From positions 1-33,006 of the IMG/VR virus record IMGVR_UViG_3300017560_000026: a stretch of DNA of 33,006 bases; one strand, written 5' to 3'. The notes below the pieces were generated by a model that saw only the letters and a program-made list of their open reading frames with translations, had not been told where the DNA came from and made no database searches. Below, one piece after another: positions 44 to 32,713 of this stretch. How positions within the stretch are numbered: the first letter of the stretch is position 1; the number at the start of each line of letters is the position of its first letter. Origin of the DNA: a virus (lineage: Duplodnaviria > Caudoviricetes). The position numbers and the translations under genes were made by a program.

Positions 44-171
44 GGTGTCTCTCCTGTCGGATGCCGCTGTGCGGCGTGCTGTAAAGCTCCTCGGTTGAGG
101 TGCTGTAAAGGACACTACGCGCTGTAAAGGGAGCACGCGGTGCGATCCACTTGATTCCTTCCACGCCGAGC

Positions 172-197
172 GGGACCGGACCCGAAGGCCCGGCCCC
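172..197 (-). terminator. GC-rich hairpin with C(UUCG)G tetraloop after the 204..587 gene (terminator or RNA-stabilising stem)
   Basis: Minus strand GGGGCCGGGCC-TTCG-GGTCCGGTCCC, 11 bp including two G-U pairs that only work on the minus strand; no U tract. Confidence 0.6.
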
Positions 198-203
198 TGC
201 CGA

Positions 204-587
204 CTACCAGCGGCCCGTCATGCTCACCGGCTGGGAGTTGAGCTCGGCGCTGACGACCTCGCCAGACTGGAAGTCGTAGATGGCCTTCTGATCGAAGGCA
301 CGAGCCACCACCAGGGCGTCAGTGCGCGATCCCTTGACGTGGACGACGCGGTCGATGTGGAAGATGCCGGTCTCGGGGTCGAGCCAGGTACCGATCAGCA
401 TGCCGCCCTCACCGGTCGCCGTCTCCGCCTCCGGCTGGAACAGCGGGGTCAGCCCGACCGCGTAGCCCCGGTGCGTGCCGTACTCAGGGGCGGGGTAGTA
501 GGGCTGCACTCCGCCGTTCTCGGTGATGAGGAACGTACCGTCAGCACGGTCGGTGGCAATGGCGATGGTTGCGTAGTCAATGAGCAT
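204..587 (-). CDS. Hypothetical 127-aa protein; C-terminal half weakly resembles phage SAM-lyase-like motif pattern
   Basis: AAGGAGA RBS, high-GC3 codon usage; motif GTWLD..G...ID..V.V...DAL..AR.FDQKAIYD. Confidence 0.8.
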   Translation of the reverse strand: MLIDYATIAIATDRADGTFLITENGGVQPYYPAPEYGTHRGYAVGLTPLFQPEAETATGEGGMLIGTWLDPETGIFHIDRVVHVKGSRTDALVVARAFDQKAIYDFQSGEVVSAELNSQPVSMTGRW

Positions 588-597
588 GATGTCTCCT

Positions 598-756
598 TTA
601 GAGTCCGTCGCGGGTATCGCGGACGGCGTCGATGATGATGGCTACAGTGAACAGAACGAGGACAGCTACCGAGGTAGCCAGTGCCGCGTATGCAAAGAAC
701 ACGATGTCTCCGATCTGAGGTGGTCGCCGTGTTGCGACCTGTAAAGATCTCATCAT
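598..756 (-). CDS. Small membrane protein (about 52 aa; start uncertain, ORF extends to 786)
   Basis: Hydrophobic stretch IVFFAYAALATSVAVLVLFTVAIII; stop abuts the RBS of the next leftward gene. Confidence 0.6.
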   Translation of the reverse strand: MMRSLQVATRRPPQIGDIVFFAYAALATSVAVLVLFTVAIIIDAVRDTRDGL

Positions 757-854
757 GCATCTTGAACCAGGGCTCAAACGATCCATTTGATTCGCCGCTA
801 CGGAGCCCGAGTTCGTGACCCCCCAGGTAACCCTACGTATCGCCTGAGCAAGCG

Positions 855-863
855 TGGTATCCT
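855..863 (+). promoter_or_regulatory. Putative extended -10 promoter (TG-n-TATCCT)
   Basis: Matches TGnTAnnnT; 7 nt upstream of the first stem of a structured region. Confidence 0.45.
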
Positions 864-869
864 TATAGA

Positions 870-1113
870 GCCCTCGCTTCCTAGGAACGGTGAGGGATAG
901 TGCCTCGGAGTGCCGATAGCTCGGCTCAGCAACGCAGGCTCAGTAACCTAGCGGCTCCGGGGCACTCTTGTGGTAACCTGATGGAGCCGTGACGTACTGG
1001 CCCCCTTCGCGGGTAGGGCGCTACTGAACTGCAACGCTTTGCATGGCGTGAATCTCCTTTCTACTAACGGAGAAGGCTCTGGAGGGCTCCCCAGCTTCCG
1101 GGGCCTTTTCTGT
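870..1113 (+). ncRNA. Candidate structured non-coding RNA (about 240 nt)
   Basis: No ORF of 60 aa or more; several stems (871-877/890-896; 899-910/955-966 enclosing two hairpins; TGCAA/TTGCA); bounded by putative -10 and a hairpin plus T tract. Confidence 0.45.
1083..1113 (+). terminator. Putative intrinsic terminator
   Basis: GGCTCC-loop-GGGGCC followed by TTTTCTGT. Confidence 0.5.
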
Positions 1114-1151
1114 GCCCGCTGTCAAGTGACCCAAAGCTTCCGGCCGCAGGG

Positions 1152-1160
1152 TGCTACCCT
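1152..1160 (+). promoter_or_regulatory. Putative extended -10 promoter (TG-C-TACCCT) for the rightward arm
   Basis: TGnTAnnnT about 30 nt upstream of the 1192 start; same GTGCTAC context as 12431-12440. Confidence 0.4.
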
Positions 1161-1191
1161 TGTCGGAGCCCACTAGCTAGGAGGTAACCCA

Positions 1192-1674
1192 ATGTCCGAT
1201 GAGAACCCGTTCGAGGACCTGAAGCAGCCGTCTTCCGCCTCGGACTCGAAGACCAAGCCCGCAGCGAAGGCCAAGGCCGCCAAGCCCGCCCCGGAGGTGA
1301 AGTCCGCCGCCGAGGACGCGCCCAACCCGCCTGCCCTTGACGACGTCACCGCCGAGGAGATCCGCAAGACCGAGGCAGCCGCTGCCAAGGTCGGCATCGA
1401 CAAGGCACCCGAGCAGGGCGAGCCGGTCACCAAGGAGGCCAAGCCCGCCACGCGCAAGAAGAAGGTCGACTTCAACAAGGCCGTCGCCGAGAAGGGCGTC
1501 CTGTCGGCGTCCTCGGGCCAGGTCGCAGCGACCATCGACATGAACCACGTCGCCGTTCCGGTGCTGAAGGTGTCGATGCTCGGCTGGGTCGGCCCGGACC
1601 CGCTGACGCTGGAGGCCACGGCCATCGCGGACATCCGGAAGGTCCTCGACGAGCTGGAGAAGCAGGCCAGCTGA
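1192..1674 (+). CDS. Hypothetical 160-aa protein, Ala/Lys/Pro-rich disordered N-terminus plus small folded C-terminal domain
   Basis: AGGAGG RBS, strong GC3 codon bias. Confidence 0.85.
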   Translation: MSDENPFEDLKQPSSASDSKTKPAAKAKAAKPAPEVKSAAEDAPNPPALDDVTAEEIRKTEAAAAKVGIDKAPEQGEPVTKEAKPATRKKKVDFNKAVAEKGVLSASSGQVAATIDMNHVAVPVLKVSMLGWVGPDPLTLEATAIADIRKVLDELEKQAS

Positions 1675-1682
1675 CCTTCGGC

Positions 1683-1731
1683 TTGACAGCAAGGGGCTGT
1701 GTTGGGATACTTAATCCTGACACAGCCCCTT
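1683..1731 (+). promoter_or_regulatory. Sigma-70/SigA-type promoter TTGACA-17-GATACT overlapped by a long inverted repeat (1691-1731) that may also terminate the upstream gene
   Basis: TTGACA 1683-1688, GATACT 1706-1711; arms AAGGGGCTGTGT/ACACAGCCCCTT. Confidence 0.7.
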
Positions 1732-1748
1732 ACTGATTGGAGGACACG

Positions 1749-1991
1749 ATGGCACTCAATAAATGGGACGATCCGGTTCCGGACGTCGCTGATCGATTCA
1801 TGACTGCGCAGAGCAGCCCGACGCCGGACGACATCGACCGTCGCAGGATCGTTCAGACCGAGATCCAGGCGAAGGTCCTGGACGCGGCACAGACGATGGC
1901 CGACCAGATCAAAGACGGACGCGAGCTCAGCCTCGCGCTCACCCACCTCGAAGAGGCCCTGATGTGGGCCGGAAAGGCGATATTCAAATGA
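1749..1991 (+). CDS. Acb2/Tad1-like helical-hairpin protein (putative immune-signal sponge), 80 aa
   Basis: GGAGGA RBS; C-terminal GRELSLALTHLEEALMWAGKAI resembles the RE.SLA.T.LEEA.MW hairpin motif of Acb2/Tad1-family proteins. Confidence 0.7.
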   Translation: MALNKWDDPVPDVADRFMTAQSSPTPDDIDRRRIVQTEIQAKVLDAAQTMADQIKDGRELSLALTHLEEALMWAGKAIFK

Positions 1992-2094
1992 GCTGGCTTA
2001 TCGTCCGACTCTCGACACGGAAGTGCCGAGGGTGTGCGGACACCTCACCCCACACCCACCACCTCACCTGGATCGGAAAGCTCAGGTACACACG

Positions 2095-2457
2095 ATGAAC
2101 ACCGACACCATGCCCGACTACTTCGAGAATGCCGACGAAGGCATCGACGAGAACGCCCCTGTCGAGAACGGCGAGCTCAGCCTGTTCGAGCTGAGCTCCG
2201 AGATGGACCGGAAGATCCTGGCTCAGTGGGCGGACACGATCATCCCCGGCATCGACATCGTCGCGCTCCAGCAGCGTGTTCGTGTCGGTGACCTCGTCCT
2301 GAACCGGCCGGGAAGCCCTGCCTTCGAGGTCTACACCCGAGGCGACAACGCGAGCTTCGAGCGAATCCAGGCCCGCCTCGGAATCCTCAACATCATCGGT
2401 GGCGACATCGACAAGGCGAAGGACCTCGACGCCTGGGTTCACGGGGACCTGGCGTGA
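2095..2457 (+). CDS. Hypothetical acidic protein, about 120 aa
   Basis: ORF with typical codon bias; stop overlaps next GTG start (GTGA). Confidence 0.8.
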   Translation: MNTDTMPDYFENADEGIDENAPVENGELSLFELSSEMDRKILAQWADTIIPGIDIVALQQRVRVGDLVLNRPGSPAFEVYTRGDNASFERIQARLGILNIIGGDIDKAKDLDAWVHGDLA

Positions 2458-2717
2458 ACGTCCGGGGGCAAGCACAGCGCGTCCGCGAGGGAATGTGGCT
2501 GCATACCGGCGACATCCTGAGCACAGCGGACACGGGTGGGAAGGGAACGCGGGTGGTCTTCATCGAGAAGATCATCTACAACTCCGACCTGACCCGGAGC
2601 TTCGTGCTTGCCCCCGTGGACGCCGTCAACCCTAAGCTGTATCGCAGCTTGACGAGCGAGAAGACTCTGCGGCAGAAGTACCGCCGCCTCAACACCAACG
2701 AAGTAAGGATCATCTGA
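2454..2717 (+). CDS. Hypothetical 87-aa beta-rich protein
   Basis: Translationally coupled at both ends (GTGA, TGATG). Confidence 0.8.
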   Translation: MNVRGQAQRVREGMWLHTGDILSTADTGGKGTRVVFIEKIIYNSDLTRSFVLAPVDAVNPKLYRSLTSEKTLRQKYRRLNTNEVRII

Positions 2718-3193
2718 TGGACATCAAGACGCTGGAGCTCATCGCCCGGCCCGTCCAGGCCACACAGTTCACAGGCGACAACTACGCCGAGCTGTCGACC
2801 TGGATTCAGGACAAGCTCTCCTTCCAGAACGTGACGGCCAACGCCGACCGCCTGTACCTGCCGAGCGTCGGCGGCACAGAGATCCTGGAGCCCGGCGACT
2901 GGGTCTTCTACGACGAGATCGACAACGTCTTCCGGGCCGCGACGGACGGGGCGGTGAAGACCCACTACCGCGAGACCGACGAACCGCTGGAAGCCTCAGG
3001 TGCAGTGTACAAAGTGAGCGTGCCTGTCGCTGAGCTGAGCGTCGAGAACGTCTTCGGGGCGCTCGAAAGGGCTCACTCCCATGTGAAGGACGAGGTGCCT
3101 GACGGCCGGGTGATCTCTCTCGATCTCGGGACCGACTACGACATGAACCTTCGGGCAGTGGAGGTGCAGGTCCTCAAGGCTGAGGAGCTGTAA
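2717..3193 (+). CDS. 158-aa protein; N-terminal domain resembles the widespread phage PVxAxQFTGxN...PGDW family, plus an extra C-terminal domain
   Basis: RPVQATQFTGDN...LPSVGG...LEPGDWVFYD...F...HY pattern; coupled to neighbours. Confidence 0.8.
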   Translation: MDIKTLELIARPVQATQFTGDNYAELSTWIQDKLSFQNVTANADRLYLPSVGGTEILEPGDWVFYDEIDNVFRAATDGAVKTHYRETDEPLEASGAVYKVSVPVAELSVENVFGALERAHSHVKDEVPDGRVISLDLGTDYDMNLRAVEVQVLKAEEL

Positions 3194-3726
3194 TGGCTGT
3201 AAAGATCCATCGAGTGCAGCGCAACCCCCTCGACTGGGCGCTCGACAAGCTCGGTATGACGCGAGTCGAGTTCCAGGTCGAGGGGGGCTACAGCAAGCCC
3301 TACCTCCTGCGGCTGAGCCAGGGACGGCACTCCCACATGGGCGACCGCGTCCTGACGGATCTCTACCGCATCGCCGGGGAGAAGGGCATCGACCTCGACG
3401 ACGAGATCACGGGCGTCTATGGCCCGTCCATCGATCTCGCCAGCGCCTACGAGCACTGGATCTACGAGCATCGAGCCGCTCAGACGATGCCCGACCCAGT
3501 GCGCGACTCCGACATGAACCCGTTCATGCGACTCGTCAAGGCGGTAGGCTCGGTCTCGCGCATGTCAGCACTGCTGGCAGCTCCGGACCAGCTCGTCGAA
3601 CGCTACGCCAAGGGCGTCTCGTACACGATGCCGATGCCGGTGATGGCAGCCCTGACCGACATGGGGTATCCGCACACGGCAGCGCTGGAGGCGTCGATGA
3701 GGAAGTGGGGCGAGAACCATGCTTGA
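3193..3726 (+). CDS. Tandem XRE-like HTH DNA-binding protein, 177 aa
   Basis: Two repeats: NPLDWALDKLGMTRVEF...YLLRLSQG and NPFMRLVKAVGSVSRMS...LVERYAKG. Confidence 0.65.
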   Translation: MAVKIHRVQRNPLDWALDKLGMTRVEFQVEGGYSKPYLLRLSQGRHSHMGDRVLTDLYRIAGEKGIDLDDEITGVYGPSIDLASAYEHWIYEHRAAQTMPDPVRDSDMNPFMRLVKAVGSVSRMSALLAAPDQLVERYAKGVSYTMPMPVMAALTDMGYPHTAALEASMRKWGENHA

Positions 3727-3844
3727 GGCACGAGTGCCTGACCCGGCCATGTACGAGGTCGTCGGTCCGCTGTGGCTCGTTGCCGGACTGCTCCTGCTCG
3801 TCGGGGCGGGGTGGCTGATCGATAGGTGGCAGAACCGTGGCTGA
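3719..3844 (+). CDS. Small single-TM membrane protein, 41 aa (absent from ORF track)
   Basis: MLEARVPDPAMYEVVGPLWLVAGLLLLVGAGWLIDRWQNRG*; fills the gap and overlaps both neighbours by 8 nt. Confidence 0.65.
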   Translation: MLEARVPDPAMYEVVGPLWLVAGLLLLVGAGWLIDRWQNRG

Positions 3845-4574
3845 GCAGGTCTTCTCTCTCGACGACGACGACTCGGTCGTGGTCGTCCAGCAGGATGGCA
3901 GGGTCAAGCGATCTCCGGTGCCGGAGGGCTTCGACCCTGTCGTCTTCCGCGACATACTGGCGGCCGTCAACATCGCCTACACCCGGCTCGGCTACATGCC
4001 CTCTATCGACGAGGTCTACGCGCTCTGGAAGAACATCCCGAAGAAGACCTACTCGAAGGCGTGGTCCACAGACGAGTTTGCCGAGGCGCTGGAGATCCGA
4101 GGCATCACAGCCAGCCGGGACTCCGGCATCAGCCCGCTTCAGGCGATGGCGATCCAGCTCCTGTCGGACCCGACCGACCGCCGCACGCTGAACACGAAGC
4201 TGCGGCAGCTCGGCGTCTCGATGCCGCAGTACCAGAACTGGATGCGGCAGCCGCTGTTCGCCCAGACGCTCACTCAGAGGTCAGAGCAGAACCTCGGAGA
4301 CGCTGTCCACGTCGCCATGAACAAGCTGATCGGCAACGCCGACGCCGGGGACCAGCGGGCCATCGAAAAGGTGCTGGAGATCTCCGGGCGGTACAACCCG
4401 CAGCAGCAGGAGGTCAACAACGCCCGACAGGTGGTGCTCGTTCTGGTGGAGGCTGTGCTGAAGCATGTATCCTCGAAGGACGAGAAGAACGCGATCCTCG
4501 CGGAAGTGGAGGCCGTCATGCAGAAGGGCTCCGTCATGAACTCGTTGAACACGATGAAGGGGTTGGAGGAGTAG
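3837..4574 (+). CDS. HTH protein, probable terminase small subunit
   Basis: SPLQAMAIQLL...LGVSMPQYQNWMRQPLF HTH followed by AGDQRAIEKVLEISG helix pair seen in TerS-like proteins. Confidence 0.55.
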   Translation: MAEQVFSLDDDDSVVVVQQDGRVKRSPVPEGFDPVVFRDILAAVNIAYTRLGYMPSIDEVYALWKNIPKKTYSKAWSTDEFAEALEIRGITASRDSGISPLQAMAIQLLSDPTDRRTLNTKLRQLGVSMPQYQNWMRQPLFAQTLTQRSEQNLGDAVHVAMNKLIGNADAGDQRAIEKVLEISGRYNPQQQEVNNARQVVLVLVEAVLKHVSSKDEKNAILAEVEAVMQKGSVMNSLNTMKGLEE

Positions 4575-4882
4575 TGCCTGCCTTTACAGCACGAGTCAAT
4601 TTCTACCTCCCTGGCGGAGGGTCGCTCAACATCGGTGGCGACGACGAGGTCGCGGACATCGACCGCATCAACCAGAACCTCCAGAAGATCGATGAGTTTC
4701 TCGGCATCCCTGACGCCGTGAGCTTCCCTGCCGACCCGTTCCCCGGCCAGGCCGTCACGATCAACGGGAACAGCTTCCGCTGGCGGGATGACGCCGGTCG
4801 ATGGGACCAGCTGACTGTCCCGGTCGGGAAGACTGCTCCCGCCAACCCCGAAGAGGGCTGGCTCTGGGTGGACACAAACTGA
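4574..4882 (+). CDS. Small virion or tail-fibre anchor protein, 102 aa
   Basis: GTG start after GGAGGAG; FYLP..DEVADIDRINQNLQKID resembles tail-fibre N-termini; ends GKTAPANPEEGWLWVDT. Confidence 0.65.
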   Translation: MPAFTARVNFYLPGGGSLNIGGDDEVADIDRINQNLQKIDEFLGIPDAVSFPADPFPGQAVTINGNSFRWRDDAGRWDQLTVPVGKTAPANPEEGWLWVDTN

Positions 4883-4883
4883 C

Positions 4884-6011
4884 ATGCCTACCCTCACGCT
4901 CCCTGGAACGGACAGCCCGGCGACGACAAGCTACATCTCGCCGGGCGGTTCGTTCTACATCTACAGCAACGTGACCGTGCCGCAAGGCCGGGCAATGGCG
5001 AACGGCAGTCGGAACATCCGCACCGTCAGCCTGAGCCTATACGTCGCAGGCAGGTCCGGGACGGTCAATATCCGGCCGTACTTCGCGGGAGCTCGTGGAA
5101 GCTACACGGGATACGGTGCGCAGGGCACGCCGACGAAGAAGACGATGAGCGTCAACGTGCAGACGGCGGGAGGCGGCACCTTCCCCTATGGCATCTACTG
5201 GGGCGGCGGCGGCGTCAACTTCCGCCGAGGCGGCGGAGGCAGCACGGAGTCCTCCGGATCGAGCAGCTGGGGCTCCTCCCTGTCGGGGACCCTCCAGTGG
5301 GCACAGGCTCCGGAGGCCCCTACCCCCATCGGGGTCGACTCTGCTACGAGCTCCTCTCTGCGAGCTCGGTTCTCCGCGAACGACAACGGCGGGATGACGA
5401 CGACCGGATGGGTCTTGCGGTACAGCAAGAGCTCGAATATGTCCGGAGCGAAGACCGTCGCATCTAGTGGCACCACCACCGTAACGGGCCTGGACCCGGA
5501 CACGACCTACTACTTCCAGGCGGCCGGGCGCAATCCCGTCACGGACTACGAGGACACCACCGGGCCGTGGTCGACGACGTTCAGCGGCAAGACGCTCTCG
5601 GCGACACCGGGACCGCCGAAGCTGAGCAGGACGGCCATCGGGGCGACCCAGACGAAGCTGACATGGACGGCACCGAACAGTGGCGGCTCGTCGATCACCG
5701 GCTACCGGGTTCAGTACAGCAAGAACTCGAACTTCTCCGGGGCGACGAACGTTGATCTCGGCAACGTGCTCACCTGGACCTCGCCAGTCCTCGACACAGG
5801 GAACTGGTACTTCCGCGTACTGGCGAAGAACGCCAACGGCAACGGCACCTGGAGCAACGTCGTCACGAGCAACATCACCCGAACCGGCTATCCAAAGGTG
5901 CAGCTGAGTGGGGACTTTGTCGGCAAGCCAGTGAAGGTATACTTGTCCGGTAACTGGGCGATCAAGCCCATGAAGGTTTATCAGGGCGGCCAGTGGGTCA
6001 CCTTGCTGTAA
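4884..6011 (+). CDS. Minor virion protein with two fibronectin type III domains, 375 aa
   Basis: VTGLDPDTTYYFQAAGRN...GPWS and LTWTAP..GGSSITGYRVQY...YFRVLAKNANGNGTWS FN3 signatures. Confidence 0.85.
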   Translation: MPTLTLPGTDSPATTSYISPGGSFYIYSNVTVPQGRAMANGSRNIRTVSLSLYVAGRSGTVNIRPYFAGARGSYTGYGAQGTPTKKTMSVNVQTAGGGTFPYGIYWGGGGVNFRRGGGGSTESSGSSSWGSSLSGTLQWAQAPEAPTPIGVDSATSSSLRARFSANDNGGMTTTGWVLRYSKSSNMSGAKTVASSGTTTVTGLDPDTTYYFQAAGRNPVTDYEDTTGPWSTTFSGKTLSATPGPPKLSRTAIGATQTKLTWTAPNSGGSSITGYRVQYSKNSNFSGATNVDLGNVLTWTSPVLDTGNWYFRVLAKNANGNGTWSNVVTSNITRTGYPKVQLSGDFVGKPVKVYLSGNWAIKPMKVYQGGQWVTLL

Positions 6012-6022
6012 AGGGAGGCGAG

Positions 6023-6670
6023 ATGAGCTACCAGTACGAACGAATCGACGGCCAGCGGGTCGAGAAGAACGTCGCCGCTGCCTTCCGGGCGCTGCGGTTG
6101 GCTTTCGAGAAGGAGTTCAGCCTCGACCTGCTCGTGACCAGCGGCACCCGCACGGCGGCCGAGCAGAAGAAGCTCCGTGACGCCCACCTCGCAGGCCGAG
6201 GCGGGCTTGCAGCCCCTGTCGGCTTCTCCAACCACGAAGAGAACGGGCCTCGCGGCCCACGAGCTCTCGACGTGCGGGACAGCGGTTGGGACGCTGGTGT
6301 CACGCGAGCGGGCAGCGTCCGTGCGAAGTGGCTTCGGGCCAACGCCTCGCGGTTCGGCTTCAACCCCGCAGGCTACGGTTTCTCGCAGGTTGAGCCGTGG
6401 CACATCGAGTTCACCGGCACTGTCGGCAAGTACGCAGCCCCGGCGAGCACCCCCAACAAGACCCCCGCTGGAGTCCCCAGCACGACGTCCGAGGAGGACA
6501 CGATGATCATCAACATCAAGGGCAAGGCAGGCGCTCGACGCGGCGGTCTGTACCTCATTCAGGGCTCGCAGGCTACGTTCCTGGGGCCTCACGCAGGCAA
6601 GGGCTTCCCCACCCTGACGGATGAGACGGAGATCCGCAACCTCCAGCGCCGGGTCAACGGTATCGGCTGA
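6023..6670 (+). CDS. Endolysin, M15-family Zn peptidase
   Basis: GGGAGG RBS; SGTRT..EQ, SNHE, ALDV and EPWH motifs; upstream of membrane genes. Confidence 0.85.
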   Translation: MSYQYERIDGQRVEKNVAAAFRALRLAFEKEFSLDLLVTSGTRTAAEQKKLRDAHLAGRGGLAAPVGFSNHEENGPRGPRALDVRDSGWDAGVTRAGSVRAKWLRANASRFGFNPAGYGFSQVEPWHIEFTGTVGKYAAPASTPNKTPAGVPSTTSEEDTMIINIKGKAGARRGGLYLIQGSQATFLGPHAGKGFPTLTDETEIRNLQRRVNGIG

Positions 6671-6674
6671 CCTC

Positions 6675-7133: not shown

Positions 7134-7135
7134 CC

Positions 7136-7387: not shown

Positions 7388-7389
7388 CA

Positions 7390-21232: not shown

Positions 21233-21233
21233 G

Positions 21234-25300: not shown

Positions 25301-27304
25301 ACGGCGACATTCCTGGGCCGCAAGCTGAACGAGGTGTTCAACCAGCGGTATGGCATGAACACGATCTTCGACATCTACCACGCCCGCAAGAGCGTGGCAG
25401 GTCAGTACCTTGCCGAGACGACGCAGGCGCTGCGGTCCCTGACGAAGTTCGACAACGCCCAGCTGAATGCTGCTGTAAAGGCCGTCCAGACCGGGACCCG
25501 GAATGCGGACCCGGCCATCTCCGAGGCGATGCGGACCATCGAGTCTGTCCTGTCGAGGGCGGTGGACGTGACGCCTGGTGCGAAGAGCCTTCTGAACAGC
25601 CCCCTGCTGCGTACCGAGCCGAACATCGACCACATCAACGCGATCCTCCGCCAGAAGTTCGGCAAGGAGACGGACTTCCAGTTCTCCGAGATCGAGGACT
25701 TCGGCGAGCTCGCAAACCAGTGGCGCAACTGGCAGTTCAAGGAGCCCCTGAAGGAGCTCTACGCCCTGTCGGACGCGATGGCGACCGTCGCAGAGCACCG
25801 CAGCATCGTTGGGAACTTCCTGCACGTCATGGGGAAGGAAGGGCTCGTCTCCACGTCCTACCGGCCGGGCATGGTGAAGGTCCAGAACAGCAGCAACTCG
25901 AAGTTCGCCGACCTCATCCCCGAGGGCACCTACCTCGACAAGAACGTCGCACGCGAGCTGCACAACCTCGACATCATGGTCCGCACCGACAGGAAGCTCT
26001 CCGGCGAGCTCGGAGAGTTCCTTCAGAAGAGTTTCATTCCGGCTCAGAACATCTGGAAGCAGGCGGTCACGGTCTACCGCCCCGGCCACCACGTTCGCAA
26101 CGAGCTATCGAACGACTTCATGAGCTTCGTTGCTCGCGGATCGAGCTACTGGCTGAGGAGCCAGAAGGACGCCATGAAGGTGCTCGGCCTGTCGAACGAG
26201 TACACCGGGGCGAACCTGATCGACTCCCTGACAGCCATCGTCGAGCGCATCCCTACCGGAACCGACAAGATCGTGTCCGGAAGTCGCCACTCCTTTACAG
26301 CGGATGAGATCGCCAAGCTGTTCCAGGACCACGGGCTGAAGACGACGTTCAACATCTCTGAGGACCTCATGCAGGACGTCGCTCAGGGCAAGCTCGCCGA
26401 GATCGGCACGAAGATGACGAACAGCCGTGTGGGCCAGCTGGCGGGCTCCGTGTCGCACCTCGTCGACCACAAGGGCAAGATGCAGCACTTCATCCAGATC
26501 CTCCATCAGGAGGCCACCGGCAAGGGCCGCTGGGGGAAGATCTCGAAGGACGAGCTCGTTCGGCGTGCCGTCCGCGAGGTGAAGCGCTCGCACCCGGACT
26601 CCCTGATGCTGACCCCGACAGAGGCGAAGCTCCGCTTCCTGATCCCGTTCTATACGTGGTTCGGCAAGACCCTGCCGTTCGCTATGGAATCGGCCGCCCG
26701 TAACCCCGGCCGCTTCATGACGATCCCGAAGGCGTCCTACAACCTCGCTGTGGCGACGGGCATTAACCCGAACAACCTGGCAGACCCGTTCCCGGACGAC
26801 CAGCTGTTCCCGAGCTTCGTCACCGACCAGTTCCTCGGCCCGCAGCTCCAGATCGACGGCAACTACATCAACCTGAATCCTGGCGCTCCGCAGATGGATA
26901 TGCTGGAGACCCTGTTCACTCCGGACCCGATCCAGGGCGTCCTCGGGATGACATCTCCGCTGCTCCGCGTGCCCGCAGAGCTCGCCACCGGCAGCCGCGT
27001 GGGCGGCCAGAAGATCAACGACTACAGCGACTACATCGACCAGAACCTGCCGCTCATCAACTACCTGGCGAACATCACCGGGACGAGCGTCTCCGGCTCT
27101 GCTGTGTCCGTGCTCCAGGGCCAGGGTCTCGACCCCCAAGCCCAGGTGGCGAAGGGCAACAAGGAGCTGTTCGATCAGATCCTGTCGGGCTCGAACTTCA
27201 TCTCCGGTCTCAACGCCCAGAACTGGAGCCGTCCGAGCTTCATCAACTACGCTGAGATCGAGAAGCGGAACAGGGCTTCTGGCACGGATAGGAGCGGATT
27301 CTGA
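22361..27304 (+). CDS. Large probable ejection/internal core protein, 1647 aa
   Basis: Ala-rich helical; GFVGDVGLDPLTYIPGG near N-terminus; RPGHHVRN and LIPFYTW in the C-terminal region, as seen in large podophage virion proteins. Confidence 0.7.
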   Translation: MVTFSDYYSQMAAAGSRPRQQPSAMPKYDFSGLSGAAKNTDKPYGVLDTIIDVLSRPLYGVTNAVTGVSEGIADSRESGNPIAAAGGIAAIPTNFLSSFFGTSGEEGKRTFSRVIEEQTDRHGKINDPNYEDIEDNVNPVLKGVLGFVGDVGLDPLTYIPGGLIAKAGSKAASFGKSAVKGVEDAVQARKVVDEAAPAARAVDEGEALLDDALASTPAAQRASAPVRTIEPQELTPGTVSKWASESKIPEVQSAWLDYNRKVERAAGSVSGDVAKGTFLSKTLPDAEKQLTKLYERYNAPVPRVKVPDNYDRTFTEMFGDAVKSPAAEGIRQELTNVLKMVGGEAASTAKQVPVRDWIRQNSKRNLFDAEDVPSAQLSGLLSAAGKTPIGSIARLAEITGRADLPMPIRREADSFIKRFHQRSAAQPSTTVTDALTAFAVRRQQSEDAVRQGLGQDIFNLLERKADGKSGAKAFDKIVRELGRMSDIRGDVSVLDRVSAEARDAFTASLGLPKYVKPEAGTADDVARISSSIHAAQTPADEVLLRTFGSELPIGEGFKKKYVHREGHVAYTEADRELRYGRHVRQLNSMFQYDLNKRLFAAISKRMEAVSGAPLSELKGLQRTQLYRQAFYENWEALSRSLDGLGVKLHVGVGKQEFLPMSFRDVVELTEKGFANEAAALSALFNGGTSIPPSRLMQAVHWVTTTGARGDDALEGVREILRNKKIAGYRGQVLDHDLPNFSTMKGRTAAHFLANGEKAARQFAKDIGGTVTKNPNGGWRVVTGSGGLTEHIAQAVVRVADAYAARAAENSAAYAARGLSEARSLTSSQLARIGRVLSAGTMDEQVEALAKLRAGVQEAGQEIGAFPSSVLAAEDAVKQAVGGFDVQRATYLHKAKTAVDASNVARKPAVAEASTRVSSSTGREADEIVEAGGFEDIVTPGESSTAVKARVKEGDPEVEVYDLGIMDKNYGIPELAGREGATATFLGRKLNEVFNQRYGMNTIFDIYHARKSVAGQYLAETTQALRSLTKFDNAQLNAAVKAVQTGTRNADPAISEAMRTIESVLSRAVDVTPGAKSLLNSPLLRTEPNIDHINAILRQKFGKETDFQFSEIEDFGELANQWRNWQFKEPLKELYALSDAMATVAEHRSIVGNFLHVMGKEGLVSTSYRPGMVKVQNSSNSKFADLIPEGTYLDKNVARELHNLDIMVRTDRKLSGELGEFLQKSFIPAQNIWKQAVTVYRPGHHVRNELSNDFMSFVARGSSYWLRSQKDAMKVLGLSNEYTGANLIDSLTAIVERIPTGTDKIVSGSRHSFTADEIAKLFQDHGLKTTFNISEDLMQDVAQGKLAEIGTKMTNSRVGQLAGSVSHLVDHKGKMQHFIQILHQEATGKGRWGKISKDELVRRAVREVKRSHPDSLMLTPTEAKLRFLIPFYTWFGKTLPFAMESAARNPGRFMTIPKASYNLAVATGINPNNLADPFPDDQLFPSFVTDQFLGPQLQIDGNYINLNPGAPQMDMLETLFTPDPIQGVLGMTSPLLRVPAELATGSRVGGQKINDYSDYIDQNLPLINYLANITGTSVSGSAVSVLQGQGLDPQAQVAKGNKELFDQILSGSNFISGLNAQNWSRPSFINYAEIEKRNRASGTDRSGF

Positions 27305-27939
27305 TGGCTGGCATCGTCAATCCCCTGTCGGCGCTGAGCGGGTTCCGGAACCAGCAGCTCACGCGGTTCACCAACCCCGGAAATTCTGTGCGAGCGACGA
27401 CGGCCGTGACAACCGATCAGCAGGCCCCGCAGGAGGATTTGAGCGGTTTCGGTCGGATCTCCGACAGAGCTACGAGGCAGCACAATATGTTCCTCACCGC
27501 TCTACAGGCACAGCAGGCCCGCAGGCAGCCTCAAAAGCCTCAGACGACCCAGAGTACCGGGACGCGCAGAACGGGCGGCGGAGGGTCACTGGGCGGCCGA
27601 TACAACCTGGTTGCGGGGGCCGACAGGGCTCTCCAGGGACTGAATGCTGCTTATCGTCAGCAGTTCGGTCACGATCTGAAGGTCAACTCGGGTGGTCGCT
27701 CCTACGCGGAGCAGGCTCGCTTGTACGCGCTGTACAAGGCCGGGAAGGGCAACCTCGCGGCCCCTCCGGGGAAGTCCGTCCACAACAGCGGTCGTGCCGT
27801 CGACTTCGGCGGGGCGATCCAGAACGCGGGCTCCCGCGAGCACCGCTGGCTTCAGCAGAACGCTGGCCGGTGGGGCTACAAGTGGACCGGAAAGAACTTC
27901 TCGCAGGTCGAGCCCTGGCACTGGGAGTGGCAGGGATGA
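27304..27939 (+). CDS. Virion-associated M15 peptidoglycan peptidase, 211 aa
   Basis: SGGRSYAEQ, SVHNSGRAVD and EPWH motifs after a Q/T/G linker; coupled to the 1647-aa gene. Confidence 0.8.
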   Translation: MAGIVNPLSALSGFRNQQLTRFTNPGNSVRATTAVTTDQQAPQEDLSGFGRISDRATRQHNMFLTALQAQQARRQPQKPQTTQSTGTRRTGGGGSLGGRYNLVAGADRALQGLNAAYRQQFGHDLKVNSGGRSYAEQARLYALYKAGKGNLAAPPGKSVHNSGRAVDFGGAIQNAGSREHRWLQQNAGRWGYKWTGKNFSQVEPWHWEWQG

Positions 27940-27970
27940 GGTTTCCGCTCTGAGGAGAGTCGGGACAAAG

Positions 27971-28011
27971 AAGAGGCCCTGCTCACCTATCCAGGTCGAG
28001 CAGGGCCTCTT
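27971..28011. terminator. Bidirectional terminator between convergent arms
   Basis: 14-bp perfect stem AAGAGGCCCTGCTC/GAGCAGGGCCTCTT. Confidence 0.8.
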
Positions 28012-28048
28012 ACCCCTTTTGAGATCGGAGAATCTCAGGTACAGCGTA

Positions 28049-28519
28049 TCAGAGGATCTCGTTCGCGTGCAGCCAGTACCGGCCATGCAGCCAGGCGCTG
28101 TCCTCGTCGGGTAGGTGCTTCTTGTTGCCGGTCTTCGTGACGGGCTTCTCGTAGCCGGTTATCATCATGGCGACAGAGAGCACCGAGGCGGGCTGCACGT
28201 ACACCGGAGTCTCCGTCTGCTGACCGAAGGTCTTTACAGACCCGACGACTTGCGAGGCCCAGTGCTCTGATCCGCCCTGCTTGATAGTCGGGTCGTGCGT
28301 GAATCCCTCAACGATCAGCTTGTCGATGTCGTCGTAGTCTCCCTTGAAGAGCAGGTACAGATCTCCAGAGTAATCGCTCGACAAGACCAAGGGCCGATTC
28401 GAGATGACTGGCGAGAACCAGTCGTCGAACTGGATGACGCCCCGCTCGACTTCAGCGCCGTCGTTCTCGAAGATCGCATAGCCGATGCGTTTGCCGGGGT
28501 CGATTGCGAGGATGGTCAT
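28049..28519 (-). CDS. RuvC-like Holliday junction resolvase
   Basis: ILAIDPG, LIVE, and HLPDEDSA acidic motifs; GGAGG RBS. Confidence 0.75.
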   Translation of the reverse strand: MTILAIDPGKRIGYAIFENDGAEVERGVIQFDDWFSPVISNRPLVLSSDYSGDLYLLFKGDYDDIDKLIVEGFTHDPTIKQGGSEHWASQVVGSVKTFGQQTETPVYVQPASVLSVAMMITGYEKPVTKTGNKKHLPDEDSAWLHGRYWLHANEIL

Positions 28520-28668
28520 TGGCTCACACCTCCTCGTCCGTACTTGATGCGGTCGCGGACCTTTTGGTACCACGGCCGCTTCGGGCAGGTCCGGAAGTGC
28601 TTGGGGATCTGGCCGTCGTCGAAGCCTAGGCGCTCAGCACGAGCGCACTTCCCGCAGATCATTGCCAT
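28516..28668 (-). CDS. Small Zn-finger-like basic protein, 50 aa (absent from ORF track)
   Basis: MAMICGKCARAERLGFDDGQIPKHFRTCPKRPWYQKVRDRIKYGRGGVSQ*; GGAGA RBS; ATGA overlap with resolvase. Confidence 0.65.
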   Translation of the reverse strand: MAMICGKCARAERLGFDDGQIPKHFRTCPKRPWYQKVRDRIKYGRGGVSQ

Positions 28669-28702
28669 GAGGGTTCTCCGTTCTGTGTGGGTTTGGGTTA
28701 CT

Positions 28703-30574
28703 TCAGGCTACCAGATCATAGTCGATCTCGGAACCGTCCCAATATTCGACCTCGACAGCGAACTTCACCGGGAACAGCTCTTCGCCATCCGGCGAGCAGA
28801 TGCCGTTGACGTCTTCCATCATCGCCTTGATCTTTACAGCGTACTCAGCGGCCTGGTCCTCGCGTACCTCGAACACGAGTGCGTCGTGGACCTGGAGCAG
28901 CAGACGGCAATCCTCGTTGTCGAGGTTGTCCATCACATGCACCATGACACGGTCGACGATGTCGGCAGCTCCGCCCTGGATGACGCTGTTCATGCCCTTG
29001 TAGCTCTGGCTCTTGTACTTGAAGTGGCGGTAGCGACCTGTCCACACCCGAGCCTTGAGGGTCTTCTCGACCGAGCCCGCGATGTTCTCCTCCAGCAGAC
29101 GGAACCGAGGGAACGCCCGGTAGTAGTTGCTGCGCAGGATCGTGGCTTCCTTCTTCGAGATCCCGAACGCCGACATCAGGCGTTTCACGCCGCCGCCATA
29201 CTGGATGCTGTAGACCATCGTCTTCGTCTTCTGTCGGGTCCAGCCCTCGGCGAGCTTCGGGTTGGTCTTGGCGAGCTGCTCCTTGATCTGGAGCGTCATC
29301 TCGTCGAAGATGTCCCGGCCCTCGGCGAAGACCTGCTTCAGGACAGGCTCCTGGCAGTAGGCGGTGCCGAGCCGGAGCTCCAGCTGCGAGTAGTCGGCCG
29401 ACAGGAGGACATGGCCTGGCTTCGGCACGAAGCACTTCTTGATCCTGTCGTTCCAGGGCTTCGGATCGGCTCCCTTGGAGATCTGCTGGAGGTTCGGGTT
29501 GCGCGAGCTCAGCCGCCCAGTCACCGTGACGTGCGTGGTGTACTCAGTGCGCAGCCGCCCGTCCGGGCTCGTGAGCTTGAGGTACGGATTCAACAGCAGG
29601 CCGACAGCGGTGTTCCAGCCCCGGTATTCGCGGATCAGGTGGGCGGTCGGGTTATCGTCCATCCGCTCCAGCATGGCCTCGTACTCGGGCATGACGCTCT
29701 TGTCGAAGTTGGGGGCGTTCGTCTTCTCGGAGCGCTTCAGTACCGGCAGACCGAGCTCGTCGATCATCAGCCGCTGCATGTCCTTGTTGCTGCCGGGATT
29801 GGCTCCGAGCTCTTCGATGACTCTGGCCTTCACCTCTTCGCCCTCGTCCCGCAGCTGCTCTGCGAGCTCCAGGTCGACCTGGATGCCTCGGCGGCGCATC
29901 TCGGTGAGGACGCGGATGACCTTCATCTTCGTCGCCCAGACGTCGGCGGGGAGCTGCTGCCAGCCGGGCGTGGAGCACTGCACCTCCCAGATGAGGTAGG
30001 TCAGCTCGGCGTCCACACAGGCGTACTCGAACATCATCTCAGGGGTGGTGTTCGGCCACCCCGTCTTCTTCTCGACCGCCAGCTTGAACTGGTCCTCCCA
30101 GGGCCAGACAGCGATCTTCCGTTTGCCGTCCTCCAGAGTGTAGACGGCGAGCTCATCGAGCCCTCGGCGGCCGATGGTCCAGTTCTCGTTGATGAGGTTC
30201 TGCATCGTGAGGACGTCGAAGAACGGGTTCTTGCGGAGATCCAGGCCCATGTTCAGCATCCCGATGATGTCGAACTGGTAGTTCGCCAGGATGAGCGGGC
30301 GGTGCTTGCGGGTCAGCACCCAGCGGATCTTCTTCGCCGTGAGGGCGTCGATGTTCTGCTCCTTGCCCGCCTTGTGGCGGATTCCCCAGTAGAAGCTCAC
30401 GAGCTCCTCGTCGGCACGGAACGCGATACTGATGCCGATCACCTTCGACCGACCGTCGTGCGTGTCCAGGCCGTCCGTCTCCGTGTCGATTGCGACAGGG
30501 GCTGTGGGGTTCTCGTTCAGCCAGTTGAGTACGTCATCAGATTGCCAGGCTGGGCTTGTCTCCGTCATCATCAT
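28703..30574 (-). CDS. Family A DNA polymerase with 3'-5' exonuclease
   Basis: IDTETDG exo I; TGRLSS..PNLQ; ADYSQLELR (A); RQKTKTMVYSIQYG (B); VHDAL (C). Confidence 0.95.
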   Translation of the reverse strand: MMMTETSPAWQSDDVLNWLNENPTAPVAIDTETDGLDTHDGRSKVIGISIAFRADEELVSFYWGIRHKAGKEQNIDALTAKKIRWVLTRKHRPLILANYQFDIIGMLNMGLDLRKNPFFDVLTMQNLINENWTIGRRGLDELAVYTLEDGKRKIAVWPWEDQFKLAVEKKTGWPNTTPEMMFEYACVDAELTYLIWEVQCSTPGWQQLPADVWATKMKVIRVLTEMRRRGIQVDLELAEQLRDEGEEVKARVIEELGANPGSNKDMQRLMIDELGLPVLKRSEKTNAPNFDKSVMPEYEAMLERMDDNPTAHLIREYRGWNTAVGLLLNPYLKLTSPDGRLRTEYTTHVTVTGRLSSRNPNLQQISKGADPKPWNDRIKKCFVPKPGHVLLSADYSQLELRLGTAYCQEPVLKQVFAEGRDIFDEMTLQIKEQLAKTNPKLAEGWTRQKTKTMVYSIQYGGGVKRLMSAFGISKKEATILRSNYYRAFPRFRLLEENIAGSVEKTLKARVWTGRYRHFKYKSQSYKGMNSVIQGGAADIVDRVMVHVMDNLDNEDCRLLLQVHDALVFEVREDQAAEYAVKIKAMMEDVNGICSPDGEELFPVKFAVEVEYWDGSEIDYDLVA

Positions 30575-32360
30575 CTCCGATCATCGAAATTATGTCTTGC
30601 GTGCGAAGTCCGTCGAGCTCGTCTCGCTGGAAGTACAGATGGCTGTCCCGGCTCACCTTCCAGACCTCCGTCAGGAGGGGGCGGAAGCGAGCCTTCAGCA
30701 GGTTGAGGTCCAGGTAGCCGTCCGGGTCGTTGCGATCCTCCAGGTCGAGCGCGAAGTCGATGGACGCCGAGATCTGGTACGAGCCGTAGATGTCGGACTG
30801 GTTGTTCGCCTGCTTGCGGCTGGCGGCGTCATTGGCCTTCTTGCGGTGGTGGTGGATGAAGACGAGACCGAACTTGTGGTAGCGGCGCAGCGCCTTCAGG
30901 AAGCCGAACAGCTTCTTCATCTCGTCGTCGCTGGAGATGTCCGTGGCTGCCTGGCTGAGCGAGTCGACGATCACCACGTCAGGCTTGTACTCGTCGAGCC
31001 AGCCGTCCACGAGACGCTGCCCTGCTTCCTCTGTGAAGTAGACCGGCTCTCCTCGGCCGTAGATCGTGAGGTTCTTGTTCAGGGCGGACTCCCGGTAGCT
31101 GTGAGCCAGGTGCGTCGTGAAGTGCTGGAGCTGGTAGGCGCTCATCTCGAAGCTCAGGAAGAGGACCTTTACAGGCTTCCCCGGCAGAGCGAAGTCGAGG
31201 AACTTGTTCCGCCCGCACGCGAGGTCTGCTGCGAGCTGGAGGGACAGCTGAGTCTTGCCGGTGCCAGGTCGTCCCGTTATCAATCCGAGACCTTCCTGAG
31301 TGAGCAGCCCCTCCACGAGCCAGTCGTCGCGGCCAGGGATCTGGTTGATCTGCCCGACGCTCATGAAGTCCGGCAGCTCCTCGACCTCAGGGCGCTCCTC
31401 CCTGTCGCCGTGCAGCAGCTTCGACAGGAGAGCCTTGGTCTGATCGGCGTCGTACCCGACCTTGGCACGAGCCCGGTTGACGAGCTCCTCCAGGATCTTG
31501 ATGCGATTCGAGCGGCCCTTGTACTTGCCCCACCTGTCGTCGGCGTCCAGCAGGGCGCGCATGATCCACGGGTCCTCCCACCCGAGCTCTGCGCCCTTGT
31601 ATGAGATGCGAGCGAGCGCGCCGGAGCGGTCCCAACCCTTGCCCTGAGCCTCGTCAGCCCCTGTGTCGAAGAGCTCGATCAGGTCGTCGTCCCACTCAGC
31701 CCGCGTGCGGACCTCGTCCATAGACGGCAGGTTGTCGAGGTCGATCTTCTCCCGGATGACGTCCTTCGGCGTCGGGATGTGCTCGAAGTCTCCGACAGAG
31801 TAGGGGGCGAGCTCCTCGCGGTCGACGGCCACCTTGACGGTGATCGGCTTGCGGTACTTGCGGTTCGTGCTCAGCGGCGGGCGTAGGAACTGGTTGGCGT
31901 CCCAGCCGCTCGTGTCGGCTCCGAGCGCGTAGGCCAGCGAACGGTTCAGTGTCTCGATCTGCTTGCCGCTCAGGAAGTCATCGAGCAGCCAGTACGTGTG
32001 GCGGTTCGACTCGCCGGAGGACTGCACCTCGATGGACGGCACAGGTGCCAGCTTCTCCGGCCAGGTGTGCGGGAAGTTGTTGTCGAAGTCGGCCCACGCG
32101 ACCTGAGCACCGAGGACGTCCTCGTTGCGAGACCGCATACGGCTGTAAAGGGCAGGCGAGAAGAAGACCTCTGCGCCCTCTGTCGCAGACCACTTCAGGA
32201 TGTGCCGATAGACGGCCTCTTCCTTCTGGGGCCATTGCAGGAAGAACTTGCGGACGCGACCTGCCTCGCTGTCCTTGACAGGGAGGTAGACGTAGCCCTC
32301 ATGCTCGCCCCAGATCTTGTGGAAGAAGTCCCTCAGACCGGCTGTTGCCGGATTACTCAC
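30537..32360 (-). CDS. Primase-helicase: RepB-like AEP primase fused to a RecA-like AAA helicase
   Basis: WADFD and SSGESNRHTYW primase motifs; GRPGTGKT Walker A, VVIVDS Walker B, IHHHRK, YGS. Confidence 0.85.
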   Translation of the reverse strand: MSNPATAGLRDFFHKIWGEHEGYVYLPVKDSEAGRVRKFFLQWPQKEEAVYRHILKWSATEGAEVFFSPALYSRMRSRNEDVLGAQVAWADFDNNFPHTWPEKLAPVPSIEVQSSGESNRHTYWLLDDFLSGKQIETLNRSLAYALGADTSGWDANQFLRPPLSTNRKYRKPITVKVAVDREELAPYSVGDFEHIPTPKDVIREKIDLDNLPSMDEVRTRAEWDDDLIELFDTGADEAQGKGWDRSGALARISYKGAELGWEDPWIMRALLDADDRWGKYKGRSNRIKILEELVNRARAKVGYDADQTKALLSKLLHGDREERPEVEELPDFMSVGQINQIPGRDDWLVEGLLTQEGLGLITGRPGTGKTQLSLQLAADLACGRNKFLDFALPGKPVKVLFLSFEMSAYQLQHFTTHLAHSYRESALNKNLTIYGRGEPVYFTEEAGQRLVDGWLDEYKPDVVIVDSLSQAATDISSDDEMKKLFGFLKALRRYHKFGLVFIHHHRKKANDAASRKQANNQSDIYGSYQISASIDFALDLEDRNDPDGYLDLNLLKARFRPLLTEVWKVSRDSHLYFQRDELDGLRTQDIISMIGDDDDGDKPSLAI

Positions 32361-32673
32361 CGCTCAGCCGCTCCTTCGTGGCTGCCGCAGCCATGTAGTC
32401 GGCAGCCTGGCTCATCAGCCTGTTGGCGACCTCGTTGAGTGCCTTCTGCTCGGCGGCAGGCCCGCAGATCTCGTTCCATTCGTCCGCCGTGCGCTGGATG
32501 TATGGAGCGGCCGGAAGACGCTCGGGGTCGAAGATGATCCACAGCTCGACAGGGATCTGGTCGAGCTCGTTCTTGATGCGGTCCTCGACGTCGCAGATGC
32601 AATCCTCGGAGCAGCGCAGCCAGGTGTTGCGCCCGCTGTAAAGATACCCGATAATGGTCATCGTAGGTTTCAC
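32353..32673 (-). CDS. Hypothetical 106-aa protein
   Basis: GAGGAGAG RBS then GTG; overlaps primase start by 8 nt. Confidence 0.7.
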   Translation of the reverse strand: MKPTMTIIGYLYSGRNTWLRCSEDCICDVEDRIKNELDQIPVELWIIFDPERLPAAPYIQRTADEWNEICGPAAEQKALNEVANRLMSQAADYMAAAATKERLSGE

Positions 32674-32713
32674 TGTAAAGACTCTCCTCTCTAGGGGTGG
32701 ACCTCACGAAAAG

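Follow-up and report, generated by a model that had tools for sequence, protein, structure and literature searches.

The repressors of cluster A phages such as L5 and TipsytheTRex are two-domain monomers with dispersed asymmetric sites, some of them at promoters; the sites are 13 bp long, lie in promoters or short intergenic gaps, are strictly oriented with transcription and serve lysogeny (PMC9283540). Repeated words of unknown function are described from the lytic Microbacterium phage clusters EC, EF, EG and EI, which have no repressor or integrase; these words are 13-30 bp long, asymmetric in EC, and occur in 5-12 intergenic copies upstream of starts (PMC7302621). Pseudomonas phage tf is a podophage of 46 kb whose genome has terminal repeats and convergently arranged gene sets; it has 14 nicks within the short asymmetric word TACT/RTGMC, repeated along one strand (PMC3517423). 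Here we describe an octamer, CTGTAAAG, found on both strands of a 33,006-nt stretch of phage DNA (IMG/VR record IMGVR_UViG_3300017560_000026, positions 1 to 33,006; hereafter the window), and a candidate reader encoded within it, a protein with tandem helix-turn-helix (HTH) domains. A literature search of mostly open-access papers, at title and abstract level, returned no account of CTGTAAAG, of this system or of the primase words discussed below.

By analogy, the CTGTAAAG system would work most like that of the cluster A repressor. Both combine a protein of ~180 amino acids that has a pair of HTH-type domains (here by prediction) with over 20 dispersed copies of a single asymmetric site (here 31 in 33 kb, 45 in Microbacterium phage Shocker, 46 in the related genome G002 and 28 in G003), and in both the site and the recognition helix vary between related phages. 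In contrast to the cluster A sites, CTGTAAAG measures 8-9 bp and lies within coding sequence in 25 of 31 cases, and its sense and antisense coding copies are equally frequent (13/12 in the window, 16/16 in Shocker); the initial annotation had already set the word apart from the oriented L5 stoperators by its occurrence in both orientations. No integrase or repressor is annotated in Shocker, and comparison at the sequence level found no similarity between the cluster A repressor and the tandem HTH. The same word is shorter than the EC, EF, EG and EI repeats (8 bp), more numerous (~45 per genome), mostly coding and present in both orientations, and it occupies both strands where the tf word keeps to one.

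The window holds 18 copies of CTGTAAAG on the plus and 13 on the minus strand, spanning 79 to 32673-32680, and 22 of the 31 have the form GCTGTAAAG; our recount gave the same figures as the initial annotation. Its expectation of fewer than one copy at ~65% GC has to be adjusted, as the GC content is 62.8% and an order-3 Markov model expects 1.36 copies, while the strong excess it reported stands (log10 P ~ -30). All 31 TGTAAA hexamers of the window are part of CTGTAAAG, and the 24 one-mismatch variants stay at background level with 0-3 copies apiece. The base 3' of the word is A 10 times, C 3 times, G 18 times and never T; the site comprises eight invariant bases and one biased base on either side. 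By a 36-gene set, 25 copies are coding and 6 intergenic. The coding copies fall, as had been described, into several frames, namely sense frame 1 (13 copies, xCT GTA AAG) and antisense frames 0 (six, CTT TAC AGC), 2 (five, TTT ACA) and 1 (one), and use codons that are rare in the window (GTA 6% of Val, TTT 5% of Phe, CTT 7% of Leu); the sole case in the SLQ frame sits in a putative open reading frame (ORF), 598-786(-). Synonymous-codon shuffles (n = 1000) yielded a mean of 0.44 and a maximum of 4 copies against the 25 observed, so that neither the shuffles nor the Markov model comes near the count, and amino-acid or codon bias is ruled out as its cause. CTGTAAAG is held by selection acting on the DNA, in agreement with the site-specific system first proposed. 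The widest gap, given earlier as about 2.7 kb, measures 2739 bp (12420-15159) and covers scaffold and capsid, and spacing is weakly more even than random in the window (coefficient of variation 0.71, p 0.045; Shocker 0.84, p 0.17). The strand split, plus/minus, is 16/29 in Shocker.

Judging by its genes (terminase, P22-like portal, SU10-type capsid and adaptor, family A polymerase and primase-helicase), the window belongs to a Shocker-like actinobacterial podophage from a group of soil and compost phages. Its kin are Shocker (terL 52%), Arthrobacter phage Jasmine and its relatives and Cellulosimicrobium phage DS1, and Shocker-type relatives together with endolysin matches suggest Microbacterium as the host genus. 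The window covers 33 kb of a genome of ~45 kb (a strain contig in run X8 has 45,240 bp), and the terminal repeats of Shocker measure 484 bp. No integrase, repressor or partitioning gene is among the 66 annotated genes of Shocker, and no integrase or partitioning gene was found among the 43 window ORFs scanned, ~12 kb of the phage lying outside the window. Below, G001 denotes loci L219-L221, G004 denotes L009/L228, Shocker is L001, Gretchen is L395 and the window's own locus is L282.

Comparison of relatives revealed that the density of the word is kept while its positions change. Besides Shocker, G002 and G003, copies are numerous in G007 (29), L242 (16), L248 (21) and L286 (21), and the complete genomes of the close relatives G001, G004, G006 and G010 contain 1, 1, 0 and 0. 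In G007, whose proteins share 71% amino acid identity with those of the window, 11 of 17 aligned coding sites are identical, and the word is kept at all 10 sites with unchanged amino acids (third-position identity elsewhere 0.67). Only 2 of 19 window sites are kept in Shocker and 0 of 19 in both G002 and G003, and the same genes carry 16, 24 and 16 copies of their own in these three phages, which indicates that selection keeps the density of CTGTAAAG (~1/kb) and not its position. The word itself is invariant among phages whose core proteins are ~50% identical. Strain contigs differ from window positions 1-16500 at 563 places. A wider scan of viral loci for two close copies of CTGTAAAG (4 of 64 parts covered) retrieved 120 loci, none with a relative of the primase, terL or capsid of the window family; of the three richest, L093 and L082 contain repeats and L064 scattered copies. 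L064 (2245-5947) is an unrelated viral locus of 40% GC with seven scattered copies in 6.4 kb on both strands.

The intergenic copies point to a regulatory site. A conserved minus-strand element, GAATCAA[AG]TGGA, precedes leftward early genes, and in several cases a GC-rich inverted repeat, recognised by eye, lies directly before it. Six word-positive genomes contain 13 matches to this element, and 11 of them have CTGTAAAG 10-45 nt downstream (0.35 expected), at distances of 14-19 or 32-35 nt; the other two are imperfect matches elsewhere. Intergenic copies exceed expectation in the window (6 vs 1.8) and in Shocker (13 vs 2.5), an excess that CTGTCG, a second dispersed word treated below, does not display in the same test, and copies in Shocker gather near start codons (10 vs 4.0 expected, p 0.005) with no sense bias. 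The element is likely part of an early promoter. In Shocker the word is inverted in the homologous slot by the element; a word that lies beside a likely promoter and functions either way round looks like the operator of a protein that binds double-stranded DNA. The annotated alternative of a decoy -35 element was rejected, as was a real one: TANNNT lies 16-18 nt downstream of TTTACA at 4 of 212 pooled sites (0-8 in shifted controls), the flanking C and G are invariant, and the word is inverted in the Shocker slot. In the same 212 sites we found no adjacent hairpin (mean fold energy of the 40-nt flanks -4.1/-3.8 vs -4.3 for random sequence) and no fixed spacing between CTGTAAAG and CTGTCG.

The candidate reader is the product of the HTH gene next to terS. 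Among 12 members of its orthologue group, 6, 4 and 1 match HTH_31, HTH_3 and HTH_26, respectively (best E 2.5e-6), and Atlas matches are to XRE/Cro-C1 proteins (0.90-0.92), so that the orthologues support an XRE-type HTH at the N-terminus; alignment predicts that the second half is also HTH-like. A PDB sequence search gave nothing significant, and tblastn against 50,697 phage records gave a significant match in Shocker alone, where the orthologue is gp10, annotated as a hypothetical protein. We compared 42 distinct orthologues from loci gathered through the neighbouring terS and terL. Two helix signatures, K-x-x-L-x-R-[LI]-x-QGR and D-x-[LV]-V-[EQ]-RYA-x-G, are both present in 8 of 8 word-positive loci (the window included) and in 0 of 34 word-negative ones; the two word-positive groups share them though their HTH proteins are only 34-43% identical. 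The signature residues are 98-100% kept in 45 database homologues, whose genomes lie outside the comparison, against a protein mean of 65%.

A sister clade carries an altered helix and a different word. In five loci with the helix NHLLL-x-AQGRK, CTGTAAAG falls to 0-0.05 copies/kb and CTACC[TC]C reaches 0.62-1.32/kb, against 0.14-0.56 in 14 other GC-rich loci. G001, whose clade is sister to the window's group on the terL tree (support 0.71), contains 43 copies of TACC[TC]CA (0.94/kb), 29 of them coding against 10.3 in shuffles (0/500 reach this number), and the word occupies the same slot at two of its three elements. TACC[TC]CA likewise stands in place of CTGTAAAG, at ~1/kb and in the same upstream slot, in L295, L288 and L330. 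Thus, word and recognition helix co-vary between the lineages. The initial annotation had named as possible binders this tandem HTH or an ejected protein: by helix co-variation the former is the best-supported candidate, and the latter is a less likely one.

We consider it fairly probable that CTGTAAAG is the asymmetric operator of the tandem HTH, which would repress early promoters and tag the whole phage chromosome. Expressed from a rightward operon (HTH, terS, terL), one HTH monomer would read the 8-9 bp word with its two heads. Bound 14-35 nt downstream of the element, it would block RNA polymerase at the predicted leftward early promoters once that operon is active, and it would load along the remaining chromosome via the coding copies, ~1 kb apart. 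In 16 Microbacterium genomes (55 Mb) we counted 32 copies of CTGTAAAG against 191 of a reversed-word control (0-5 vs 5-20 per genome), giving ~0.6/Mb as compared to ~940/Mb in the window, about 1,600-fold rarer in Microbacterium DNA; with Microbacterium chromosomes nearly devoid of the word, loading would act as a self-tag. It would take place almost only on phage DNA and most likely late, in step with packaging, a link suggested by the position of the HTH gene beside terS; this is the weakest step of the proposal. Promoter function, HTH binding and the role of the coding copies are what we infer from these comparisons.

Several observations weigh against this assignment. A sigma-70 promoter scan of window 1-1300 found none. 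The window's own HTH copy has no Pfam match, and its two HTH halves fail to align with each other. The helix signatures, like the G001 word, were drawn up with the data already in view, and the 8-versus-34 split amounts to about three clades on an unresolved backbone, where the place of G001 varies from gene to gene (beside the window, beside Shocker or outside). Private residues, those that word-positive genomes alone share, are as dense in ej2, a rival reader (6.2 per 100 amino acids), as in the HTH (5.5), with the primase at 1.9. Word-negative relatives outside the G001 clade (G004, G006 and G010) retain both HTH and element but have no comparable genome-wide word in their top lists; in G010, neither CTGTAAAG nor TACC[TC]CA accompanies them (0 of 3 elements). 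The copy on the HTH gene's own start is lost in G007, and other readers could lie in the ~12 kb of the phage beyond the window. Furthermore, the unrelated phage Gretchen, which infects M. paraoxydans, carries 14 dispersed copies of GTGTAAAC (0.3 expected), mostly as CGTGTAAAC, on both strands about every 3 kb (L395 101-46526) and with a TGTAAA core, and has no match to the tandem-HTH profile, a hint of a shared host reader of TGTAAA. Nor does the HTH stand out in trees of whole proteins.

Another phage protein as reader, namely ej2 coating the incoming DNA, the small acidic protein encoded upstream of the primase or a gene outside the window, is unlikely, although there are points in its favor. 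Private residues are densest in ej2, and its tree puts G001 outside the word-positive genomes with support 0.99; ej2 has no Pfam or PHROG match. The small acidic gene is present in all 13 listed word-positive loci and absent in G001 and L245, with CTGTAAAG at its start in five loci, but its product is acidic and 10-64% conserved and is also encoded by L253, a word-negative locus. The model of this product (pLDDT 91) resembles no known fold (best Z 3.8 in the PDB), which need not make the fold new. This protein, a homologue of Shocker gp45 encoded between an SSB-like gene and the primase, gave no Atlas match, and in BFVD its one match of note (E 0.16) is the uncharacterised protein of Shocker itself. 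A SprT-like gene occurs in four word-positive genomes and not in G001. Word-negative G001, G006 and G010 encode a second HTH (Shocker gp57); at the syntenic place in L242 we did not find this gene.

The primase has a word of its own. An AlphaFold model of the 30537-32360 product (pLDDT 86) matches RepB' (3h20, E 1.1e-10) and DnaB/RepA helicases in Foldseek, which indicates that the window encodes a primase of RepB' fold; the PF16793 match is weak (E 0.032). CTGTCG, missing from the initial annotation, occurs 85 times in the window, and CCTGTCG 51 times in coding sequence against 10 in shuffles. Phages sharing the primase have related top words: GTGTGG in GTE2, Muddy, Serbin and Lebethron, GTGTGGCC in Ixel, GTGTGC in Amigo, CCTGTG in Polewnik, CTGTGG in Jasmine, CTGTAG in ctEqG8 and kin, and CTGTCG in DS1 and the window's wider clade. 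This family spans siphoviruses, podoviruses and Gram-negative hosts, and for the most part its word variants follow the clades of the primase tree (loci including L002, L003, L012-L015 and L136-L218). A word of the pattern [CG]TGT-N-G, which was chosen with the data already in view, ranks third or higher among the 6- or 7-mers at 65 of the 69 primase loci of at least 10 kb, which were not dereplicated, versus 2 of 40 control loci (the first 40 of at least 10 kb among the 120 viral loci with two close copies of CTGTAAAG); in three of the four misses, CTGTAAAG fills the top list. Albedo, BonaeVitae, Gretchen, 60 kb of Magritte and AddiRose have neither a primase-profile match nor such a top word, and in CN1A, whose primase domain is a distant one, the word is CCGTGCG.

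CTGTCG persists where CTGTAAAG is nearly absent, at 2.66/kb in G001, 2.86/kb in G010 and 1.55/kb in G006. It is low (1.1/kb) in G004, which has no close primase orthologue (a weak helicase match only), as expected if CTGTCG belongs to the primase. CTGTAAAG is confined to part of one clade and does not follow the primase across genomes. As CTGTCG tracks the primase and persists without CTGTAAAG, it is likely the priming site of the RepB'-like primase, with CTGTAAAG an added signal; the annotated role of the octamer as the primase site is thus probably not correct. RepB' of RSF1010 starts on the T of a GTG triplet (PMC8567376). The likeness lies in the primase fold and in family words that are short and T-centred (GTGTGG, GTGTGC, CTGTGG, CTGTAG, CTGTCG), which fits CTGTCG and not CTGTAAAG; the difference is that ssiA forms a hairpin of 40 nt and occurs a single time on each strand (PMC8567376), whereas here hexamers are dispersed at 2-3/kb with no hairpin.

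Somewhat less likely again than a different phage reader is that CTGTAAAG serves as a second, high-specificity site of this primase beside the short CTGTCG, as in NrS-1 PrimPol, which has two sites, TTTGGTTA (8 nt) and GTG (PMC8718748). Besides that precedent and the RepB' match, CTGTAAAG opens with CTGT like the words of the primase family and occurs on both strands, and the variant CTGTACAG occurs five times in 4.6 kb of L007. However, the three relatives just named keep CTGTCG with 1, 0 and 0 copies of CTGTAAAG (G001, G010 and G006), TACC[TC]CA, which takes its place in the sister clade, lacks a TGT core, CTGTAAAG but not CTGTCG is enriched in intergenic regions and at the element, private residues of the primase are few, and there is no ssiA-like hairpin.

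It is improbable that a host protein recognising TGTAAA reads CTGTAAAG, with the phages gathering sites in order to recruit or titrate this protein or to gain its protection. Such a reader would suit the invariance of the word across divergent phages and the dispersed sites of Gretchen, but it would leave the co-variation of the HTH helix unexplained, and Microbacterium chromosomes hold fewer copies of the word than of its reversed control. Moreover, CTGTAAAG is absent from five other Microbacterium phages (Albedo, BonaeVitae, Gretchen, Magritte and Ixel), two of which infect M. paraoxydans, and four of the five have no excess of TGTAAA. Chi, KOPS and nucleoid-protein sites are families of host chromosomal motifs; the suggestion of a Chi-like or nucleoid-protein site is at odds with both the host counts and these five phages. 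It is very improbable that CTGTAAAG marks programmed single-strand nicks in packaged DNA like those of T5, phiKMV-like phages and tf, since for all the similarity of CTGTAAAG to a nick word in length and AT-richness and of the phage to tf, the tf nicks are all on the top strand against 18/13 and 16/29 here, 45 nicks on two strands would be many, and the clustering by the upstream element would be left unexplained.

Returning to the tandem HTH as reader, the known dispersed repressor sites belong to temperate cluster A phages and are oriented and intergenic, whereas the phages here are apparently lytic and their sites non-oriented and mostly intragenic. Keeping ~45 sites costs a Shocker-type phage rare codons and amino-acid changes, so their purpose probably goes beyond promoter repression. 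If the reading is true, a phage self-tag almost absent from Microbacterium chromosomes would be written about once per kb into genes and beside predicted early promoters. The G001 clade offers a natural swap of word and helix as a built-in specificity control, and Shocker gp10 a handle in a cultured phage. A broader scheme is possible but doubtful: a lytic phage family with self-tagging, in which a two-headed HTH and a private 8-bp word, placed in essential genes at one copy per kb and ~1,600-fold rarer in Microbacterium DNA, mark the chromosome so that early genes are shut off and phage DNA is packaged, protected or kept from kin, with word and helix switching together, and in which [CG]TGT-N-G is the code of the whole RepB'-like phage primase family. 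The likely priming word of each primase lineage can be deduced from its genome. Coordinates are listed in Table 1.

Table 1. Positions of CTGTAAAG and of associated features in the window.
Feature	Position	Strand	Remarks
CTGTAAAG copy	79..86	+	intergenic, third of three downstream of early-region element
CTGTAAAG copy	103..110	+	intergenic, 35 nt from early-region element
CTGTAAAG copy	122..129	+	intergenic, 16 nt from early-region element
conserved element GAATCAAGTGGA	146..157	-	upstream of leftward gene running off window start; likely early-promoter part
CTGTAAAG copy	739..746	+	35 nt downstream of second element
conserved element GAATCAAATGGA	782..793	-	where leftward and rightward genes diverge
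tandem XRE/Cro-C1-type HTH gene, 177 amino acids, candidate reader	3193..3726	+	K35-x-x-L-x-R40-L-x-QGR, D132-x-L-V-E-RYA-x-G
CTGTAAAG copy	3197..3204	+	codons 2-4 of HTH gene
terminase small subunit (terS)	3837..4574	+	adjoins HTH gene in aligned relatives
CTGTAAAG copy	4582..4589	-	directly past terS stop
CTGTAAAG copy	6006..6013	+	peptidase ORF, AVK
CTGTAAAG copy	7682..7689	+	terL codons 2-4; retained in G007, Shocker
CTGTAAAG copy	8897..8904	+	terL; retained in G007
CTGTAAAG copy	9543..9550	-	LYS; retained in G007
CTGTAAAG copy	10031..10038	-	portal; retained in G007
CTGTAAAG copy	12420..12427	+	intergenic, ahead of scaffold gene
CTGTAAAG copy	15159..15166	-	GDPD-domain gene
CTGTAAAG copy	15611..15618	+	GDPD-domain gene, PVK
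CTGTAAAG copy	17529..17536	+	adaptor gene
CTGTAAAG copy	18270..18277	-	PFTD; retained in G007, Shocker
CTGTAAAG copy	19015..19022	-	LYS; retained in G007
CTGTAAAG copy	19986..19993	-	LFTE
CTGTAAAG copy	20711..20718	-	gene of 250 amino acids
ORF of 412 amino acids (ej2), likely internal virion protein by gene position, rival reader	21105..22343	+	
CTGTAAAG copy	22893..22900	+	gene of 1647 amino acids; retained in G007
CTGTAAAG copy	23322..23329	+	gene of 1647 amino acids
CTGTAAAG copy	23872..23879	-	gene of 1647 amino acids; retained in G007
CTGTAAAG copy	25194..25201	+	gene of 1647 amino acids; retained in L242
CTGTAAAG copy	25473..25480	+	gene of 1647 amino acids
CTGTAAAG copy	26293..26300	-	gene of 1647 amino acids; retained in G007
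CTGTAAAG copy	28232..28239	-	resolvase gene; retained in G007 and L242 despite S/A change
CTGTAAAG copy	28832..28839	-	DNA polymerase A; retained in G007
RepB'-like primase (catalytic and helix-bundle domain) fused to DnaB/RepA-type helicase	30537..32360	-	likely CTGTCG reader
CTGTAAAG copy	31167..31174	-	primase-helicase gene
CTGTAAAG copy	32143..32150	+	primase-helicase gene
small acidic gene upstream of primase, minor candidate reader	32353..32661	-	presence largely tracks CTGTAAAG
CTGTAAAG copy	32636..32643	+	first codons of small acidic gene
CTGTAAAG copy	32673..32680	+	small-acidic-gene start region; slot also occupied in L240, L241, L242, L244
CTGTCG, dispersed second word, 85 copies (53 +, 32 -)	54..32552	both	likely primase recognition site

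Some further observations concern the primases and the repeated words. Proteins that frequently bear the annotation 'RecA-like DNA recombinase' in Gordonia, Mycobacterium, Microbacterium, Arthrobacter and Serratia phages are homologues of the primase-helicase. In L146, L151-L154 and L188-L217 the primase-helicase lies in two consecutive frames with a break near residue 175, and G012 gives two profile hits, consistent with either a frameshift or a split gene. The CTGTACAG copies of L007 (780-4461) are a palindromic variant of the octamer, and the terL of this contig groups with the Shocker group, the HTH gene lying beyond the contig. TACCCTA, which looks like an extended -10 element, is present 25 times in Shocker (L001 63-45010), 20 times in G002, 17 times in G003 and 14 times in L286, mostly intergenic and often with TGC in front; its count in the window group is zero, and kin carry TAAACTAA, TACGCTAA and CATACTAA.

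Variable modules are apparent in the strain contigs of runs X5, X8, X9 and X12, in which gene 204-587 is replaced (window 198-697 region) and similarity to the window ends at 14651, before the GDPD-domain gene. The ends of the G006 contig (4-172 and 43921-44449) consist of a tandem array of a 24-bp repeat with more than 30 units. The window also encodes an Fn3-repeat protein and two separate VanY-type peptidases (4884-6011, 5993-6670 and 27304-27939).

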